From Turneriella sp. (lineage in GTDB: Bacteria; Spirochaetota; Leptospiria; Turneriellales; Turneriellaceae), in contig CBDIID010000003.1 in NCBI GenBank assembly GCA_965279515.1, positions 1,568,001 to 1,632,000 of the forward strand: a DNA stretch of 64,000 nucleotides, written 5' to 3'. A program made the translations under genes and the position numbers. Below are positions 54,024 through 62,992 of this stretch, in pieces; the first letter of the stretch is position 1, and every line of letters starts with the position of its first letter. The notes beneath the pieces were generated by a model. That model saw only the letters and a list, made by a program, of their open reading frames with translations, had not been told where the DNA came from and ran no database searches.

Positions 54024-54479
54024 ATGCCTAAACCCTTCGGTTTCGAGCGCGCCGACGACAGCCCGGGTTTTCTGCTGTGGCAGGTGACAAGCCTGTGGCA
54101 GCGGGAGATCCGGCGCGCGCTGACGCCGTTTGACCTGACGCATTCACAATTTGTGCTGCTCGCGAGCATCTACTGGCTGACGCTGAGCGGCGCTGAAGTC
54201 ACCCAGACGGCGCTTTCAAAACATTCGAAGATCGATGTCATGACGGTTTCCCAGGTCTTACGAGCACTGCAGGCGAGAAAACTTTTGCAACGCCGCGAGC
54301 ATAGTACCGACACCCGGGCCAAGGCCGTCGAGCTGACCGAAGCGGGAAAAAATGTCATTCAGCCGGCTGTCAAGGCCGTGGAAAAATTCGACGGCGAATT
54401 CTTTGCTGCGCTGAAAGGTAATCCCCTTGCCGACTTCAATACAAAGATGAAAAAACTGATTGCTTCCACCGGCACTTAA
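54024..54479 (+). CDS. MarR-family transcriptional regulator
   Basis: SPGFLLWQ, LTHSQFVLL, DVMTVSQVLRAL, DTRAKAVELT. Confidence 0.93.
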   Translation: MPKPFGFERADDSPGFLLWQVTSLWQREIRRALTPFDLTHSQFVLLASIYWLTLSGAEVTQTALSKHSKIDVMTVSQVLRALQARKLLQRREHSTDTRAKAVELTEAGKNVIQPAVKAVEKFDGEFFAALKGNPLADFNTKMKKLIASTGT

Positions 54480-56248
54480 CCCGGTGTTTTTTTACTGATG
54501 ATCACGCGCGCGAACTGCGCGACATTTTCGATGATCGTATCAATGTCGCGCGCTTCGACCGCATACTCTTCGAGCGTCTGCTTCAAGAGCCCCGCGACGG
54601 CATTAAAATGCTGCATGGTGATCGGCAACCCGGCATGCGCCACGCGCAGCACATCAAAATCGTAAGGTATTTTTGCCCCCATCACGACGGCAATAAACCG
54701 GGTCTGGTGTTTGCGCAGGCGGTTCATATTCACCGAGCGAAAAAATTCGCCGACCATGGGGTTTGCGACAATTTTTTCGTAGAACGTCGCCACGATCTTT
54801 TCAATCGTCTGCCGCCTGCCGTATTTTTCATACAGGGTCAGCGTCGAATGGTCGAGGCCCAGATGGCGGAGCGCAGTCTGCAAATGAAATTTCGCCACGT
54901 AATCGGTGGGCGAATTTGCCAGGTATTCCTCGAAACCCTGCTTTGCATCACGGAAATCCCCCGCACGCAGCGCCTGCAATGCGAGAATGAACTGGCCGCG
55001 GTAAATCAGCCGCTCGTCTGCCTCTACGTCGGTATTGGCCGGCAATACCTCGTGGATTTCCATGACCTCTTTGCGCCCCCGCAGCAACGTCAAATCGACC
55101 AAACGGTGCAGCGGTTTCTTTTCGAGCTTATCGAGCGCGGTCTTTGAGATCAGAATCTGCGTGAGGTATTTTTTATTCAGCTGCTCGATGCGCGAGGTGG
55201 TATTGACCGCGTCGCTGATCACGGTATTTTCGAGGCGCATGCTTTCACCGATCGTGCCCAGCATGATCCTGCCGGTATGGATGCCGATACCGATACTGAG
55301 CGGATCCATACTGGCAGAGGCAAGGCTGTCGTTGAAGGGTTTCAGGCGCTGGTACATCGCCTGCGCCGCGGCGAGCGCGCCGTCAGCGGTTTCGAAAAGC
55401 CCCATGATCGCATCGCCGATATACTTGTCGATAAACCCGCCGTGTTCGCGTATCGTCGGGCCCATCACACTCAGATACTGGTTGATGAAGGTAAAATTCT
55501 CCGCCGGGGATAAACTTTCAGAGATTGCGCTGAAATTGCGGATATCGGAAAAAAGAATCGTCATCTCGCGCTCGGTACTTTCGCCCAGCCTGACATCATC
55601 AATACTGTCTTTTTTCAGAAAGCGCAGAAACTCCATCGGCACAAAACGCAGCATCGCCTGGCGCGCCGACTCGACCTTTTGCAGGGCATTGTCCATGATT
55701 GTGCGCAAAAGAAAGAGCAGAACTGTAACGAGAACCAGTGAAATGATGCTCGCCATAAAACCGACCTGCCCTGCAATGAGGAGATCCCCCTCGAGCTTTT
55801 CACGGATCAGAGAAAAAAACGCGGCATTACACAGCAGCAGAAACGCGGCCAGGGGAATAATAAGATACTTGCGGCCGAAAAAACCCATCACGAGCACAGG
55901 CACCGGAAAAAGATGGATGAAGCTGCTGTAAGCAGTGGCGTATTCACCGGTAATCTTTCTCCCCTGCGCCAAAAGCAGAATCACCGTCATCGCCAGCGAA
56001 AGCAGGTGCCCCGCGGCAAAGAGCATTCCATGGCGGAGCAAAAATTGCCCGGCGAGGGCTACAACCCAGGTAGCGATCATGGGCGGCGCAGCGACATGCA
56101 AGCGGTGCGGCAACCAGACGATATAGACCGCCAGGAAAACCGGTAGTGCGATCAGTAGTACGAGATTAAAATAATAGAGCGTCGCCGCGCGGCGGCCGGT
56201 AACATAATCGGCTTCGCGAAATTTGTTTAGTACATACCGGTGGGTCAT
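54476..56248 (-). CDS. Membrane class III adenylate cyclase with a TPR-like linker and a C-terminal group I truncated haemoglobin
   Basis: About six TM helices; FSDIRNF, DKYIGDA, DAVNTTSRIE. C-terminal TLYEKYG..FYEKI..FF..HQTRF..AHAGL.IT..HF is a 2/2 globin pattern. Confidence 0.88.
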   Translation of the reverse strand: MTHRYVLNKFREADYVTGRRAATLYYFNLVLLIALPVFLAVYIVWLPHRLHVAAPPMIATWVVALAGQFLLRHGMLFAAGHLLSLAMTVILLLAQGRKITGEYATAYSSFIHLFPVPVLVMGFFGRKYLIIPLAAFLLLCNAAFFSLIREKLEGDLLIAGQVGFMASIISLVLVTVLLFLLRTIMDNALQKVESARQAMLRFVPMEFLRFLKKDSIDDVRLGESTEREMTILFSDIRNFSAISESLSPAENFTFINQYLSVMGPTIREHGGFIDKYIGDAIMGLFETADGALAAAQAMYQRLKPFNDSLASASMDPLSIGIGIHTGRIMLGTIGESMRLENTVISDAVNTTSRIEQLNKKYLTQILISKTALDKLEKKPLHRLVDLTLLRGRKEVMEIHEVLPANTDVEADERLIYRGQFILALQALRAGDFRDAKQGFEEYLANSPTDYVAKFHLQTALRHLGLDHSTLTLYEKYGRRQTIEKIVATFYEKIVANPMVGEFFRSVNMNRLRKHQTRFIAVVMGAKIPYDFDVLRVAHAGLPITMQHFNAVAGLLKQTLEEYAVEARDIDTIIENVAQFARVIISKKTPG

Positions 56249-57254: not shown

Positions 57255-58427
57255 GTGGCTAAAACCATCGCGATCATCGGCAGCGGCCCTGCGGCGCTCA
57301 TGGCTGCATCTGTACTCGCGGCGCACGGCCATGCACCGGCGATCTTCGAAAAGAATAAAGGCCCGGGGCACAAGCTGCTCATCGCCGGCGGTTCGGGCCT
57401 GAATATCAGCAACGAGCTGCCCCTCAACGAATTTATTGCCGCCTATAGCGGTGCGGGCATCCGCTGGATAGAACTCTTCGGAAAATTCTCTGCCACCGAC
57501 TGGCTGGACTTCATACACAAGCTGGGCCTCGAAACTTTTGCGGGTACCAGCGGCCGTTATTTTGTACGCGAGATGAAGGCTTCGGGACTGTTGCGGTCAT
57601 GGCTTGCCGAACTCGAAAGGCAAAATGTCAATTTCACCTACAGCCGAGAATGTGTGGGCTTTGACAGAAATGCGGGACAAATCAAACTGTTTTTCGCGGA
57701 CGGGTCAGAATTTGCCTGCGCTGCGGTCCTGTTTGCCCTCGGCGGGGGCAGCTGGCTGAAAGAAGAAGCGCTCTGGCCCCGGATTTTCAGGGCTCACCAT
57801 ATAACCGTGAATCCTTTCATACCGTCGAATGCCGGTTTCCAGGTGGCGTGGCATGAAAAGTTTATCGCCGAGGCTGAGAACCGGCCGTTGAAGAACATCG
57901 AATTTATCTCCGGTCTCGGCCGTAAAAGGGGCGACCTCATGATCACGCGTTATGGTATTGAAGGCACACCGGTCTACACTCTGGGCCGCAGCGAGACCTG
58001 CTTCATTGACCTGAAACCCGATCTTTCAGAGGCCGAGCTTCTCGAAAAACTCGATCGCGTTCCGGAAAACCTGTCGCCCCTGCGCCGCGCAAAACGTAAC
58101 CTCAACCTTGCGGATACCGCGCTCGCGCTGCTCTACCATGAAGCCCCGGCCGGCGCCCTGGAATCAACCGCCGCATTGGCGCGCACCATGAAGAACTTTC
58201 CGCTGCAGCTGGGCAGCAGGCAACCCTTGAGCGAAGCGATTTCTTCCGCCGGGGGTTTAGATCTCGCCGAGCTCGATGGGGATTTTATGCTGAAGAAAAT
58301 CCCCGGCGTTTTTGCCGCCGGCGAGATGCTCGACTGGGATGCGCCGACGGGTGGTTTTCTGATACAGGCCTGTGTCTCACAAGGGTTTGCCGCCGCACAC
58401 GGTATTTTAAAATACCTCCGTGCGTGA
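57255..58427 (+). CDS. HI0933/BaiN-like flavoprotein (TIGR03862-type)
   Basis: IGSGPAALMAA, AGGSGLN, GTSGRYF, ALGGGSW, AISSAGG, GEMLDWDAPTGGFL. Confidence 0.9.
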   Translation: MAKTIAIIGSGPAALMAASVLAAHGHAPAIFEKNKGPGHKLLIAGGSGLNISNELPLNEFIAAYSGAGIRWIELFGKFSATDWLDFIHKLGLETFAGTSGRYFVREMKASGLLRSWLAELERQNVNFTYSRECVGFDRNAGQIKLFFADGSEFACAAVLFALGGGSWLKEEALWPRIFRAHHITVNPFIPSNAGFQVAWHEKFIAEAENRPLKNIEFISGLGRKRGDLMITRYGIEGTPVYTLGRSETCFIDLKPDLSEAELLEKLDRVPENLSPLRRAKRNLNLADTALALLYHEAPAGALESTAALARTMKNFPLQLGSRQPLSEAISSAGGLDLAELDGDFMLKKIPGVFAAGEMLDWDAPTGGFLIQACVSQGFAAAHGILKYLRA

Positions 58428-58692
58428 AACGAAAGCTCCGCTGCTTTCGCTGCGTTGCGCCTGCAACCGCAGCGTCTTCAACGCGAATACATTCGCGCGC
58501 GCCATCTACAAGCGCCGCGACCGCTTTCTTCTGGCACTCGGCGCGACGCGGCGGCCGATACGCGTCGAAGTGCGCTGTGCCGTCTGTGAATTTCTGTTCG
58601 GCGTCAGCACCGACATCCGCCTCAGGGAAAAGAACTGCGCCGTCGACTCGCTGACGCTGGCTGACCTGGAAACCATCGATGGCATGCGCTGA
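58420..58692 (+). CDS. Small Cys-containing hypothetical protein (CxC...CxxC)
   Basis: GTG start overlaps the end of the flavoprotein gene; LRCAC and RCAVC; fills the intergenic gap. Confidence 0.45.
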   Translation: MRETKAPLLSLRCACNRSVFNANTFARAIYKRRDRFLLALGATRRPIRVEVRCAVCEFLFGVSTDIRLREKNCAVDSLTLADLETIDGMR

Positions 58693-58737: not shown

Positions 58738-59130
58738 ATGGTCAGAACCCTTGTGTTCCTGTTTTCTCTCACCGCTTTCCATTGCCTGAACAACGGAAAA
58801 TCGTTTAATGAAGTCGAACCCAATGCGCTGCCGGCAACCGTCACCTGGACAGAGCATGCCTTACCGACGCTGAAAAAACATTGTAATGAATGCCACTCGA
58901 GCGGGCCCGAATCAAAATATGGCACGGTTTCGGGAATCGATTATTCTCTCTACGAAAACGCAATCCCCGTAGCAACAGCTTCAAATTCAAGCCAGAGAAA
59001 AAATGGTTTCCAGAATATACTAGGCACAGCTATCAATTCGAGCTACATGCCGCCGGGCAACAAAGAGCGGCTCAACCCGTATGAACGCGCTCTGCTGCTG
59101 CGTTGGCAAGAACAGGGGTTTCTGAAATGA
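58738..59130 (+). CDS. Monohaem c-type cytochrome lipoprotein
   Basis: Spirochaete-type lipobox AFHC; CNECH; distal ligand motif YMPP; L..W..QG end. Confidence 0.8.
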   Translation: MVRTLVFLFSLTAFHCLNNGKSFNEVEPNALPATVTWTEHALPTLKKHCNECHSSGPESKYGTVSGIDYSLYENAIPVATASNSSQRKNGFQNILGTAINSSYMPPGNKERLNPYERALLLRWQEQGFLK

Positions 59131-60632
59131 ATCTGCGCGCACTGATCTGCCTCACGGCGCTCTTTGGGGCAACACAGCAAATAGCAGCATTGCCGATCTA
59201 TTCTTTCGGTGCCACGCGCACCTGCGACACATGCCATGCGACGCCCTTTGCCACCGACAAAGAAACAGAATGGAAAAATCCGGAGCTCAAATCGCGGAAA
59301 TGCAATATGTCGTGCCAGAGCTGCCATGTAAACCCATCGGGAGCCGGCATCCGTAACGGCCCGGGTCGTTATTTTGCGCAGGCTGCATTGCCGGTTTACA
59401 ACAAACAGGCCCGGCCATACCATGATCTCAACCGTAACCTGACTGATTACATCTCCCGCCTGACAGCAAAACCAGCACCTCAGGCAGCGCCAGAGCCAGC
59501 CACGAAACCGGCTGCGAAAGCTGTAGCGGCACCTGAAAAAGCCGACGCGGAAAAACGCTCCGACGCAAAACTTCCCTGGTTCTACAGCGGCGACTGGTTC
59601 AGCTGGGGCCATCCGCTCGATGCCCCCACAGTCGCAGAGCAGAGTGAATATGCTTTTCGCGGCGATCGTTATGGCACCATCAACGCCGATCCGTTTCTCA
59701 CCATCGGCGGCGATGTGCGGCTTGCAGCGTATAACACACCGGGAAACCCCATCGCCGTGTTTCCGATGCAGTTTGATGTCGGTACGGCTATCCACCCGAT
59801 CGAACACATCACCGTCTCGGCCACCGGCGGCGTGCAAGGCAGAACCTCGGGCTTTACAGATTCACTGCAAGATAAACGCAACAGCCCGGCAAAATTGCAA
59901 AACGCCTTCGTCATGATCCATGAACTCCCGTACCAGGCCTATCTGCAGGCCGGCGCGTTTTTGCCCGAGTACGGCATTCGTACAGAAGACCACACCGCCT
60001 TCAACCGTAAGCTCGTCGAGATGGACCCGACGCAACCTCAGAATGTTGTCTACGGTGTGCAGGCCGGTGCCGCGCCAAACTATCCCTACCTCAGCGCGAG
60101 TGGTTTTGCCACACGAAAATCAGATGGCACTCCCGATGGCGGCAGCGGTTATACCGCCAATCTCGCATGGCGCGATATTGCTTTCGGCGGCGGATTATCG
60201 CTGATGCAGAAATTCCGGCCGATGACGGGCACCCTGCCCTATGAAGTTACGGGCAATTTCACTACCGTAAGCGTCAACGCCTACTACAACCTGTGGGGAT
60301 TGTTCCCGTCGACGCGCTATACAGCGCCGATGATTATTCTCGCCGAATACAACATCGGAAAAATGCCGCGCACCACTTCGAGCGATCGTATCTTTAGTAT
60401 TCTCGCCATCGAATGGGATTGGCTCGCCTTCAACGGCTTTGTTTACCGCGCGGGCTACCAGATCCAGAATCAGGACATCGCGGTGATCTATTCGACACTC
60501 AACCGTATCAATACAGGTTTCGATCTGACGCTGGTTCCGGGCCTGCGCTTCACATTCGACGCACGCATGTATCTGGCTTCAGCGCGCAGTACCAGCACAG
60601 AGTTTATCTTATTTGCGCACGGTTATCTGTAG
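59127..60632 (+). CDS. Dihaem cytochrome c fused to an outer-membrane beta-barrel (Cyc2-like architecture)
   Basis: ATGA coupling to the upstream gene; signal peptide ..IAA; CDTCH and CQSCH; Pro/Ala linker; amphipathic strands; C-terminal FAHGYL. Confidence 0.75.
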   Translation: MNLRALICLTALFGATQQIAALPIYSFGATRTCDTCHATPFATDKETEWKNPELKSRKCNMSCQSCHVNPSGAGIRNGPGRYFAQAALPVYNKQARPYHDLNRNLTDYISRLTAKPAPQAAPEPATKPAAKAVAAPEKADAEKRSDAKLPWFYSGDWFSWGHPLDAPTVAEQSEYAFRGDRYGTINADPFLTIGGDVRLAAYNTPGNPIAVFPMQFDVGTAIHPIEHITVSATGGVQGRTSGFTDSLQDKRNSPAKLQNAFVMIHELPYQAYLQAGAFLPEYGIRTEDHTAFNRKLVEMDPTQPQNVVYGVQAGAAPNYPYLSASGFATRKSDGTPDGGSGYTANLAWRDIAFGGGLSLMQKFRPMTGTLPYEVTGNFTTVSVNAYYNLWGLFPSTRYTAPMIILAEYNIGKMPRTTSSDRIFSILAIEWDWLAFNGFVYRAGYQIQNQDIAVIYSTLNRINTGFDLTLVPGLRFTFDARMYLASARSTSTEFILFAHGYL

Positions 60633-61492: not shown

Positions 61493-62992
61493 TCAGAACC
61501 CAGGCAGGGAGCGGCTGGAAATCCCTGCGGCGCGCGTGCTCGCGCCGGCCTTTGCGAGTAACTCGGCGGTATCGAGACGGTTGAGTTTTTTGGCGATCAT
61601 GTAGGGTGTCCAATAATCGGCGAGCTTTACATCAAGCTGTGCCTTGCGGACGATCAGCATCTTCACGGCTTCGTTCTCACCCATATAAGCCGCATAGATG
61701 AGCGGTGTCCAGCCCTGGTAGTTGCCGTTGGGGTCTGCTCCCTGCTTCAAGAGTGAACGCACCTCGCTGCTATTGCGACCGATGATCGCATGGATGAGTT
61801 TATTGTTGAGCGCCGCATTTACGGGTATGTCACCTGCGAGATCGGCGTAATCGTCGACCGGAAGCGGCACTGGCGGCAACACCGCTTCACCGCCGCCCGA
61901 CTCTTCGCCACGATTGCGGTCGCGGAAGTGCGAGAGATGCAGAGCGATGGGTTTAATCGCACCACGCACGCAGGGATAACCCGTCTTGCAGGCATAACCA
62001 AATCCGAATGTCTTGCCATCGTCGAAATTAAATGTAAGTTCAAAATCCGGTGCCGTCACCTGAAAATCAATCTGCAACCTGTTTTTTTTACCTTTGAGGT
62101 ACGCATCTAAATCGAGGTTTGTGCCTTGGCCCGAGAGCGCACCCTCATGAAGTACCTGCCCGTCGATGCTGACCCGCGCAGTGCTGGATTTACCGTACAG
62201 CCGGAGCTTGCGGCCTGAGGCAGAATGGTAAAGGAAAACCGGGGCGCGATCAGCAGGCTGACTTCTGCCGGGATACAGCTGCGCGATGCCCTGCTTGTCC
62301 CCCTCGGAAAGATTGAAACGCATGCCGAGCGGAACTCCACTCTTAAAGAGCTCGCCCGGCAGATAATACCCCATCGTCGATTCGTGATCGAATGTAGTCC
62401 AGTTCTTGTAGGGATCGCTCTGTTTATTAAAAATCTCTTCATCTGTCTTCTGGCGGCTCCACTTGAATGTCTCCTGGAAATATTTGTAAGCTTTCTCTGG
62501 TACCCAATCAATACTACCGGCGGGGTTCTCCTGTTCGTGGTGCAGCCCCAGGGCGTGCCCAAACTCATGCTGTATTGTCGAGTCGCCCGAAATACCGGGA
62601 TAAAAACTCATGCTGTGCGCTGTCGTACTCTCCGTTCCATAGCCAACGATGGACCAACCGGCAACGCCCGGATCCTGTTTCTCGAACTTAATGAGGATGG
62701 TATGTTCTTTCTGTGTTTTGGGTTCCTGATGAAACTCAAACCTGAAATTACCGTACTTCTCCCATTCGCGCGCATAATGCTCCACCTCGCCGCGCTCTTT
62801 CTCGCTGCCGTTGACGAAATAGACTTTGATGACCTGACCCGCTTTCCAGCCGGTGGTTTTCGAAAAGATCGACCGTTCGCGGCCGCTGGCAAAAATCGGC
62901 ATACCACAAGACCGACGGTATTCGGGGGAGGTTTCCGCGGCCACGGGAAGCGACGCGAGCAATAACAGCATGAGCGGGATTTTCTTTTTCAT
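61493..62992 (-). CDS. Secreted M12 (astacin-like) metzincin protease with C-terminal ankyrin repeats
   Basis: Signal peptide; HEFGHALGLHHEQ; Met-turn STMGY; GADPN..GWTPLIYAA..TP ankyrin repeats. Confidence 0.88.
   Translation of the reverse strand: MKKKIPLMLLLLASLPVAAETSPEYRRSCGMPIFASGRERSIFSKTTGWKAGQVIKVYFVNGSEKERGEVEHYAREWEKYGNFRFEFHQEPKTQKEHTILIKFEKQDPGVAGWSIVGYGTESTTAHSMSFYPGISGDSTIQHEFGHALGLHHEQENPAGSIDWVPEKAYKYFQETFKWSRQKTDEEIFNKQSDPYKNWTTFDHESTMGYYLPGELFKSGVPLGMRFNLSEGDKQGIAQLYPGRSQPADRAPVFLYHSASGRKLRLYGKSSTARVSIDGQVLHEGALSGQGTNLDLDAYLKGKKNRLQIDFQVTAPDFELTFNFDDGKTFGFGYACKTGYPCVRGAIKPIALHLSHFRDRNRGEESGGGEAVLPPVPLPVDDYADLAGDIPVNAALNNKLIHAIIGRNSSEVRSLLKQGADPNGNYQGWTPLIYAAYMGENEAVKMLIVRKAQLDVKLADYWTPYMIAKKLNRLDTAELLAKAGASTRAAGISSRSLPGF

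Follow-up and report, generated by a model that had tools for sequence, protein, structure and literature searches.

A two-haem cytochrome–porin, apparently from a sister family of Cyc2, and its coupled cytochrome partner in Turneriella sp.

The stretch of DNA described here, below called the window, comprises 64,000 nucleotides from a Turneriella sp. (GenBank assembly GCA_965279515.1, contig CBDIID010000003.1, positions 1,568,001 to 1,632,000). It contains two overlapping genes, encoding a small c-type cytochrome, P0001, and a cytochrome fused to a predicted porin, P0002 (Table 1). Judged from its sequence, P0002 appears to belong to a two-haem sister family of the cytochrome–porin Cyc2 rather than to Cyc2 proper, a family that is widespread and apparently undescribed. 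Its most distinctive feature, which the original prediction had missed, seems to be an invariant fifth cysteine. A literature search, whose coverage largely excluded subscription journals and also supplementary files that could contain such sequences (the figshare alignments and trees for Cyc2, for example), found no description of a two-haem Cyc2-like porin. Papers are cited below by PMC number.

P0002 carries LPIYSFGATRTCDTCH at residues 22–37 and CNMSCQSCHVNPSGAGIRNGPGRYF at residues 59–83, which include its first and second CxxCH motif, respectively. Among 20,000 shuffled versions of the protein none had two such motifs and 18 had one. Both motifs are invariant across 58 aligned homologs. 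A proline follows three residues past the histidine at both sites, and a proline at position −10 of site 1 is present in 137 of 143 two-haem homologs.

The fifth cysteine, Cys59, was followed in a census of 161 proteins of at least 340 amino acids with a haem motif, from which two N-truncated proteins were excluded, leaving 143 with two sites and 16 with one. Four positions ahead of the last CxxCH, 141 of the 143 two-haem proteins have Cys, one has His and one Arg; of the 16 one-haem proteins, none has Cys there. The search profile includes the fifth cysteine and so favours its carriers; the one-haem proteins without it came from the same searches. In a phylum sample of 30 loci all 17 two-haem genes have the cysteine and none of the 12 one-haem genes does, one further gene being truncated, and two homologs with CX3CH at site 1 retain it. 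The 80 loci used below to describe the gene neighbourhood were not counted for this argument, because the pattern by which they were picked contained the extra cysteine. Ahead of Cys59, Arg at −6 is conserved in at least 138 and Lys or Arg at −5 in 127 of the 143 two-haem proteins; this Arg-Lys pair occupies the position of R[QK] in Cyc2. Since Cys59 is an unpaired, exported cysteine that is gained and lost together with site 1, and that has once been swapped for His, it probably serves as distal ligand to haem 1, which would then have His/Cys ligation.

Other roles for Cys59 were considered as well. Exactly five cysteines, counted from the first motif onward, are present in 130 of the 143 two-haem homologs, so that an intrachain disulphide partner would be lacking. 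A disulphide role was rejected on this odd count and on the lack of a spare cysteine in P0001. A radical-SAM-type CxxxCxxC cluster was dismissed by inference from the Sec-type signal, the histidine after the motif and the second CxxCH. Residues 30–70 scored 20.1 bits against a c7-like model, below its cut-off of 24.8; position −4 might be the equivalent of the ligand histidine in c7-type HxxxCxxCH, although no alignment confirmed this. Searches of solved structures with the whole family or with the haem region gave matches at the level of CxxCH only.

The C-terminal part of P0002 was modelled with AlphaFold2 on the basis of 58 sequences, which yielded 16 strands with a mean predicted local distance difference test score (pLDDT) of 81.8 and a predicted template modelling score of 0.81. 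With its two CxxCH motifs and this predicted barrel, the two-haem cytochrome–porin fusion that had been proposed from the letters of the window is borne out. VIA-align placed the model closest to trimeric porins, with tied Z-scores of 22–23 and a root-mean-square deviation (rmsd) near 3 Å over about 280 residues (Foldseek E 2e-10); Omp32, OmpT, PorB, OprO and OprP are among the tied top matches. The haem region (residues 31–70) has a pLDDT of just 61–64, because it was modelled without haem.

Cyc2 is defined by the motif AxPxFAR[Q/K][T/Y] upstream of CxxCH, and is predicted to combine one N-terminal haem with a 16-stranded porin, for which OprO and OprP are named as the closest structures (PMC8406198). 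Named examples are Acidithiobacillus Cyc2, Mariprofundus Cyc2PV-1, Ghiorsea Cyc2TAG1_1 and Leptospirillum Cyt572 (PMC8406198, PMC7029218, PMC13692758). Strict Cyc2 sets were gathered by motif, resulting in 56 complete proteins from 120 loci and 21 long proteins from 23. At the position of the Cyc2 motif P0002 reads ALPIYSFGATRTC, and PxFAR[QK][TY] occurs in none of the 161 family proteins, where the proline at −10 and often an aromatic residue at −8 are all that remains of it. The PxL that Cyc2 has about four residues past CxxCH was found within 3–6 residues in 0 of 161; 81 of 141 have a Px[LM] farther along, in the stretch that separates the two sites. Whereas Cyc2 has a single CxxCH, two are present in P0002 and in 143 of the 159 non-truncated homologs. 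The C-terminal 16-stranded porin of Cyc2, in a protein of more than 365 amino acids, has its counterpart in the 16 predicted strands and 501 residues of P0002.

P0002 scores −1.5 bits on a profile of 55 PxFAR[QK]T-type Cyc2 proteins and 3.4 bits on one of 21 PxFAR[QK]Y-type proteins, while the first profile scores the second set at 39–68 bits. Both profiles were built in this analysis and may not cover all of cluster 3. Four strict Cyc2 proteins compared with NCBIfam gave no matches. The connection becomes visible through the one-haem relatives of P0002. Using hhalign, the two-haem core matches these relatives at a probability of 100% over 327 columns, and the relatives match PxFAR[KQ]Y-type Cyc2 at 98.7% (E 4.5e-16, 317 columns) and PxFAR[QK]T-type Cyc2 at 96.5% (109 columns). 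Compared directly, the two-haem family reaches 28.6% and 57.6% against the Cyc2 profiles, and no significant direct sequence link to the 56 strict Cyc2 proteins was found beyond the N-terminal motif. The P0002 family therefore appears to be linked to the Cyc2 superfamily transitively, via these one-haem relatives. The original prediction had called the protein Cyc2-like: this holds for architecture and transitive homology, and not for membership of Cyc2 itself, given the missing motif and the low profile scores. It had also seen the Cyc2 signature split over the two haem sites, which is weakly reflected in a PxF-type lead-in at site 1 (best E 0.004) and a GRxF helix at site 2 (28.6%).

Like Cyc2, the family has a likely signal peptide, an N-terminal haem c site with Pro at −10, a G-R-x-F/Y helix after the haem and an OprO/OprP-like barrel of 16 predicted strands. 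Unlike Cyc2, it has two haem sites, an unpaired invariant cysteine, the PxL displaced between the sites and a FoxE/PccH-like, probably lipid-anchored partner of its own, and its hosts are not known as iron oxidisers. Tandem duplication of the haem motif would be the simplest account of the second site, with insertion as the alternative.

His289 and Met214 are conserved in 100% of the two-haem groups and in 93% of the one-haem relatives, and Arg198 likewise is 93–100% conserved across all groups, one-haem relatives included. Because they are kept in the one-haem relatives too, these three residues are assigned to the shared haem 2. The loop after strand 5, which contains His289, is the constriction loop in 16-stranded porins. 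The His289 column aligns with a histidine in 20 of 21 PxFAR[KQ]Y-type Cyc2 proteins, so that a constriction-loop histidine would be common to the two-haem family and this type of Cyc2. Met214 faces outward in the register given by strand alternation and aligns with Gln in PxFAR[QK]T-type Cyc2; His289 is likely the better candidate for the distal ligand of haem 2. At lumen-facing strand positions six conserved basic and six conserved acidic residues are found, and the median net charge of the barrel, −8, equals that of strict Cyc2. An anion-selective lumen was not found in this strand-alternation test.

The upstream gene encodes the partner cytochrome. Of the 80 loci, 72 have a homolog of P0001 adjoining the porin, 69 of them on its upstream side and three downstream: 66 were identified by position and motif, and a profile built from those 66 plus P0001 added three upstream and three downstream. 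The same profile matches 1 of 120 strict-Cyc2 loci. Among 72 haem genes that lie upstream in related loci, 34 have a stop of the form ATGA or GTGA. The column of the probably lipidated Cys16 is Cys in 66 of 67 aligned partners, and P0001 is likely a lipoprotein, with His at lipobox position −1, which is atypical. An MPP motif lies at residues 104–106, and all of the 70 partners compared have Met104 and Pro105. The coupled monohaem lipoprotein proposed at the outset, with its ATGA overlap, CNECH and MPP, has therefore held up, the lipoprotein nature as a likelihood, and the pair is conserved well beyond the window.

In the eight loci lacking a partner, two are cut short upstream, three have a small dihaem cytochrome directly upstream of the porin (L004, L038, L058), one has a Rieske-like protein (L072) and in two none was found. 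The small dihaem gene, whose family motif is CX4CH or CxxCH plus PSC[WY]xCH, is also a third member of the cassette in 13 loci (L013, L015, L016, L028, L034, L037–L039, L042, L047, L051, L062, L078). Apart from it and the partner, no conserved neighbours were found among the 80 loci. Among the loci from relatives of the host, a partner is present in 7 of 12, and three of the other five end at contig edges. Rieske-like genes replace the cytochrome partner directly upstream of two-haem porin paralogs at L213:8880–9362 (−) and L072:841–1308 (+). The one in L213, upstream of a same-genus paralog from genome G011, scores 16.8 bits in Pfam, below the cut-off of 20.3, with CxH and CxxH motifs visible; it has a Tat-like leader, and a laminin-G-domain lipoprotein-like gene lies downstream.

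In comparisons with solved structures, the partner profile matches best to FoxE from Rhodobacter/Rhodopseudomonas ferrooxidans SW2 (PDB 5MAB; E 1.3e-10), where both haem domains are matched with the Met motif aligned, and then to PccH from Geobacter sulfurreducens (PDB 4RLR; E 3.7e-5). The P0001 model (pLDDT 88) has PccH as its best structural match (Z 6.4, rmsd 2.8 over 78 residues), with FoxE at Z 5.8. According to a Rhodoferax model, Met serves as distal ligand to the haems of FoxE (PMC10654088). PccH has been linked to electron uptake and has a potential of −35 mV (PMC13591261). While FoxE is dihaem and works with FoxY and FoxZ, P0001 consists of one domain, probably has a lipid anchor and is coupled to a porin, and no FoxY- or FoxZ-like gene of a foxEYZ operon was seen among the conserved neighbours. 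The domain type is common, as illustrated by PSCyt1-like clusters, and because it is so widespread, the FoxE-like domain does not specify iron.

To delineate the family, a word-index search with P0002 retrieved 74 proteins among 7,999 scored. A profile search of 50%-identity representatives gave 1,690 matches at E ≤ 0.001; 771 of them also passed 1e-10 and 138 passed 1e-30, and the best 150 were inspected. Of 313 matches to the pattern in species genomes, 86 could be confirmed, and 80 loci were retained. By their record titles, carriers occur in Myxococcota, Bradymonadia, Gemmatimonadota, Eisenbacteria, Latescibacterota, Krumholzibacteriia, Fibrobacteria, Hydrogenedentota and Spirochaetota, and the family is not specific to the lineage of the window. 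An Atlas search with P0002 returned unnamed clusters only (top 0.98), from Bdellovibrionota and Myxococcota. Among relatives of the host 12 of 41 genomes match, including 5 of 13 others in the genus and 0 of 7 in the same-class family, as far as stretches were searched. In the phylum of genome G041, 34 of 151 match, weak one-haem matches included. Multiple copies may reflect specialised substrates.

An unrooted tree was made by a quick method from the barrel only, using 79 of 156 rows. Its one-haem and two-haem proteins are intermingled, and the well-supported branches require at least three joint changes of site 1 and the cysteine. The one-haem proteins P0070, P0071, P0143 and P0151 have a His-rich insert at the position of site 1 and group with a two-haem protein, which suggests that they are relatives with a decayed site 1. 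A long-branch subgroup of 37 proteins (P0072, P0138, P0152–P0156 and others) starts with PW[LI] instead of P[LM]Y and retains both haem sites and the extra cysteine.

What the pair does may be envisaged as follows. With roughly even chances of being right, porin and partner would together act as a short relay: a dissolved donor would enter the pore, and its electrons would be passed inward. After Sec export, haem c would be attached at both CxxCH motifs of P0002; the host genome has two cytochrome c assembly genes. Haem 2, shared with the Cyc2-like relatives, would be located where the barrel opens to the periplasm, ligated by His67 and probably by His289. Haem 1, added by N-terminal duplication or insertion, would be ligated by His37 and Cys59, and such ligation would give it a low potential. 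The His/Met partner could then take the electron at the periplasmic face and deliver it to respiration via the cbb3 and CoxB-type oxidases, both of which score above cut-off in the host genome. A 16-stranded barrel is thought to take a haem domain as a periplasmic plug (PMC8406198), and with such a plug the substrate must enter the pore. His/Met haems typically lie at +200 to +380 mV and His/Cys haems at −180 to −470 mV (PMC9562282), so that flow toward the partner would be downhill overall. Our guess for the donor is chelated or free Fe(II), used by a heterotroph for supplementary energy or detoxification; Fe(II) would be the leading single donor, accounting for about half of the weight given to the relay.

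Several points weigh against this relay. Haem attachment, ligation, location, direction and substrate are presumed, and the low-confidence haem-region model offers no geometry for the haem positions. Electron transfer from Fe(II) to a His/Cys haem, at −180 to −470 mV, would be strongly uphill. Nor does the partner have to be of high potential, given the −35 mV of PccH (PMC13591261). The Z-score of 6.4 for the match of the partner model to PccH is moderate and in a range where a common arrangement can be the explanation, Foldseek gave nothing at E ≤ 0.001 with the P0001 model, and the partner profile also matches two unrelated genes in the host genome (E 3e-17 and 2e-9). The lumen charge seems to give no hint of the donor, and no inner-membrane partner was found among the conserved neighbours. 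The distribution is patchy even within the genus, there are up to six copies in one genome (G041), and the 80 loci, with several per genome, are not independent. The named host groups are not known as iron oxidisers.

Four other explanations have been weighed against the relay. The first, which we consider improbable yet the strongest of the four, is that haem 1 is itself the catalytic centre, with His/Cys ligation like that in TsdA and SoxA, where a small anion such as thiosulfate, sulfite or polysulfide would react with the cysteine while haem 2 and the partner remove the electrons. His/Cys c-haems form the active sites of TsdA and SoxA in Arg-rich pockets (PMC9562282), and such a haem beside basic residues and paired with one of higher potential is likely for P0002 as well. 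The conserved basic residues ahead of Cys59 fit this idea, but they lie at the R[QK] position of Cyc2 and may be inherited. Similarly, the tied top fold matches include porins selective for anions, whereas the lumen charges are balanced and the net charge is that of strict Cyc2. TsdA and SoxA are soluble periplasmic enzymes (PMC9562282), with which P0002 has no fold or sequence in common past CxxCH. The N-terminus lacks the TsdA fold, the SoxA match (E 0.01) spans CxxCH only, and P0002 scores 12.7 bits on the SoxA model, for a cut-off of 110. In addition, no sulfur genes were found among the conserved neighbours and no SoxA above cut-off in the genome.

Secondly, and with a slightly smaller chance, the pair could work outward as a reductase, passing periplasmic electrons over the His/Cys haem to a soluble acceptor in the pore (a ferric or cupric chelate, or a quinone) for metal uptake or redox balance. 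A haem of very low potential suits a reductant, PccH-type folds can lie near −35 mV (PMC13591261), and Ghiorsea Cyc2 was measured at −130 mV, illustrating that potentials vary within the superfamily (PMC13692758). The hosts also are apparently heterotrophs. As to autotrophy genes, only a short RuBisCO-like gene was seen in the host genome, phosphoribulokinase not having been searched for; this sole RuBisCO-family match (L272, G000:C3:4570689–4571741) is 350 amino acids long, is far below every curated cut-off and lies beside apparent sugar-nucleotide and glycosyltransferase genes. On the other hand, His/Met or Rieske-type partners usually have a high potential and would be poor donors to a His/Cys haem, and neither a quinol dehydrogenase nor a metal transporter was found among the conserved neighbours.

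Thirdly, a non-respiratory role as haem-gated channel, redox or gas sensor or surface oxidant sink, with the labile cysteine ligand as a switch, seems distinctly unlikely. Labile thiolate-ligated haems do serve in gas sensing (PMC9562282), and mobility between contexts, patchy occurrence and multiple copies would suit such a role. However, no signalling domain or conserved regulator was found, and electron transfer is favoured because the substitutes of the partner are one-electron carriers only.

Lastly, the trans-outer-membrane conduit of the original prediction, in which three haems would span the membrane and exchange electrons with minerals or electrodes, is the least probable of all. It has in its favour the three haem sites in two coupled genes, and proteins with 10–13 CxxCH motifs that are encoded next to the porin or in its vicinity at 4 of 80 loci (L012, L023, L026, L061). 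But both haem motifs of P0002 precede strand 1, whose N-terminal side is the periplasmic end in porins with an even number of strands. No surface multihaem partner was found, nor any match to the MtrB/PioB porin (PF11854) in the host genome. MtrAB-type wires have 26 strands and ten haems, and modelling indicated that a 16-stranded barrel could not accommodate a spanning cytochrome (PMC8406198). The MtrAB/MtoAB/PioAB, PCC3 and PCC4 systems resemble the P0002 cassette in that porin and cytochrome genes occur together (PMC8406198, PMC5566968), but they have separate multihaem cytochromes and larger barrels, and PCC3 and PCC4 a conserved inner-membrane protein, all of which the cassette lacks.

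Table 1. Coordinates, in the window, of the gene pair and of features within the two encoded proteins.
Feature	Position	Strand	Remarks
P0001, partner gene	58738–59130	+	130-aa monohaem c-type cytochrome, likely lipoprotein, FoxE/PccH/PSCyt1-like fold
P0001 signal peptide up to likely lipidated Cys16 (codon 58783–58785)	58738–58785	+	lipobox-like context in 62/66
P0001 CNECH (residues 49–53), haem 3	58882–58896	+	CxxCH invariant in 70/70
P0001 Met104, likely distal ligand (His/Met)	59047–59049	+	aligned to the MP motif in each of the two FoxE haem domains
ATGA stop/start overlap of P0001 and P0002	59127–59130	+	likely translational coupling
P0002	59127–60632	+	501 aa; two-haem cytochrome with a predicted porin of 16 strands fused to it
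P0002 likely Sec signal peptide, residues 1–21	59127–59189	+	read by eye; homologs show AxA then LP
Haem site 1, CDTCH (extra haem), residues 33–37	59223–59237	+	invariant; Pro at −10 as in Cyc2
Arg57-Lys58-Cys59	59295–59303	+	Cys59 is the unpaired fifth Cys, likely distal ligand of haem 1
Haem site 2, CQSCH (residues 63–67), with VNPxGGGxRxxxGRY segment	59313–59375	+	site common to one-haem relatives
Pro/Ala/Lys-rich linker, about residues 113–147	59463–59567	+	variable among homologs; pLDDT 58 at residues 121–140
Predicted 16-stranded beta-barrel, residues 191–500	59697–60626	+	AlphaFold2, porin fold matches
Met214	59766–59768	+	invariant; alternative ligand candidate for haem 2
His289, loop after strand 5 (constriction-loop position)	59991–59993	+	likely distal ligand of haem 2

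The flanks of the pair in the window are unrelated to it, with an HI0933-like flavoprotein gene upstream and a converging 6-phosphogluconate-dehydrogenase-type gene downstream. The host genome, which is 99.99% complete, has a single copy of the cassette. The closest named relative of P0002 (80% identity, locus L001) comes from a record titled Turneriella sp., and the flanks of its cassette differ from those in the window; the two genes form a cassette in a variable genomic context. Scans for promoters and terminators at the locus gave signals at chance level, and its GC content shows no anomaly. Between the flavoprotein gene and P0001 lies an open reading frame of 90 codons with a CxxC motif (58420–58692, +), without a Pfam match above cut-off, whose homologs (51–88% identity) are present in 7 of the 13 other genomes from the genus, a set that differs from the porin carriers. 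Elsewhere in the window, 61493–62992 (−) encodes a likely secreted protein of 499 amino acids, in which an astacin-type metallopeptidase domain is combined with ankyrin repeats at the C-terminus. The membrane protein encoded at 54476–56248 (−) presumably combines an adenylate/guanylate cyclase domain with a C-terminal truncated globin, motifs that we take to be present from its translation.

Cyc2 has been described as strictly monohaem, and is used as a marker of iron oxidation. The two-haem family keeps the Cyc2 architecture and adds a haem with a likely thiolate ligand. It is invisible to motif-based annotation, because it falls outside the Cyc2 motif and below all Pfam and NCBIfam cut-offs, as illustrated by P0001 and P0002, neither of which exceeds any of them. 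The coexistence of one- and two-haem forms, together with the swaps between cytochrome and Rieske partners, provides a handle on the distal ligand of Cyc2 and on its periplasmic acceptor, and the family bears on the role of fused cytochrome–porins in bacteria not known to oxidise iron. Should haem 1 after all be a catalytic site, P0002 would be a pore-enzyme capturing a reduced anion, representing unrecognised surface redox chemistry in predatory and heterotrophic bacteria of many phyla.

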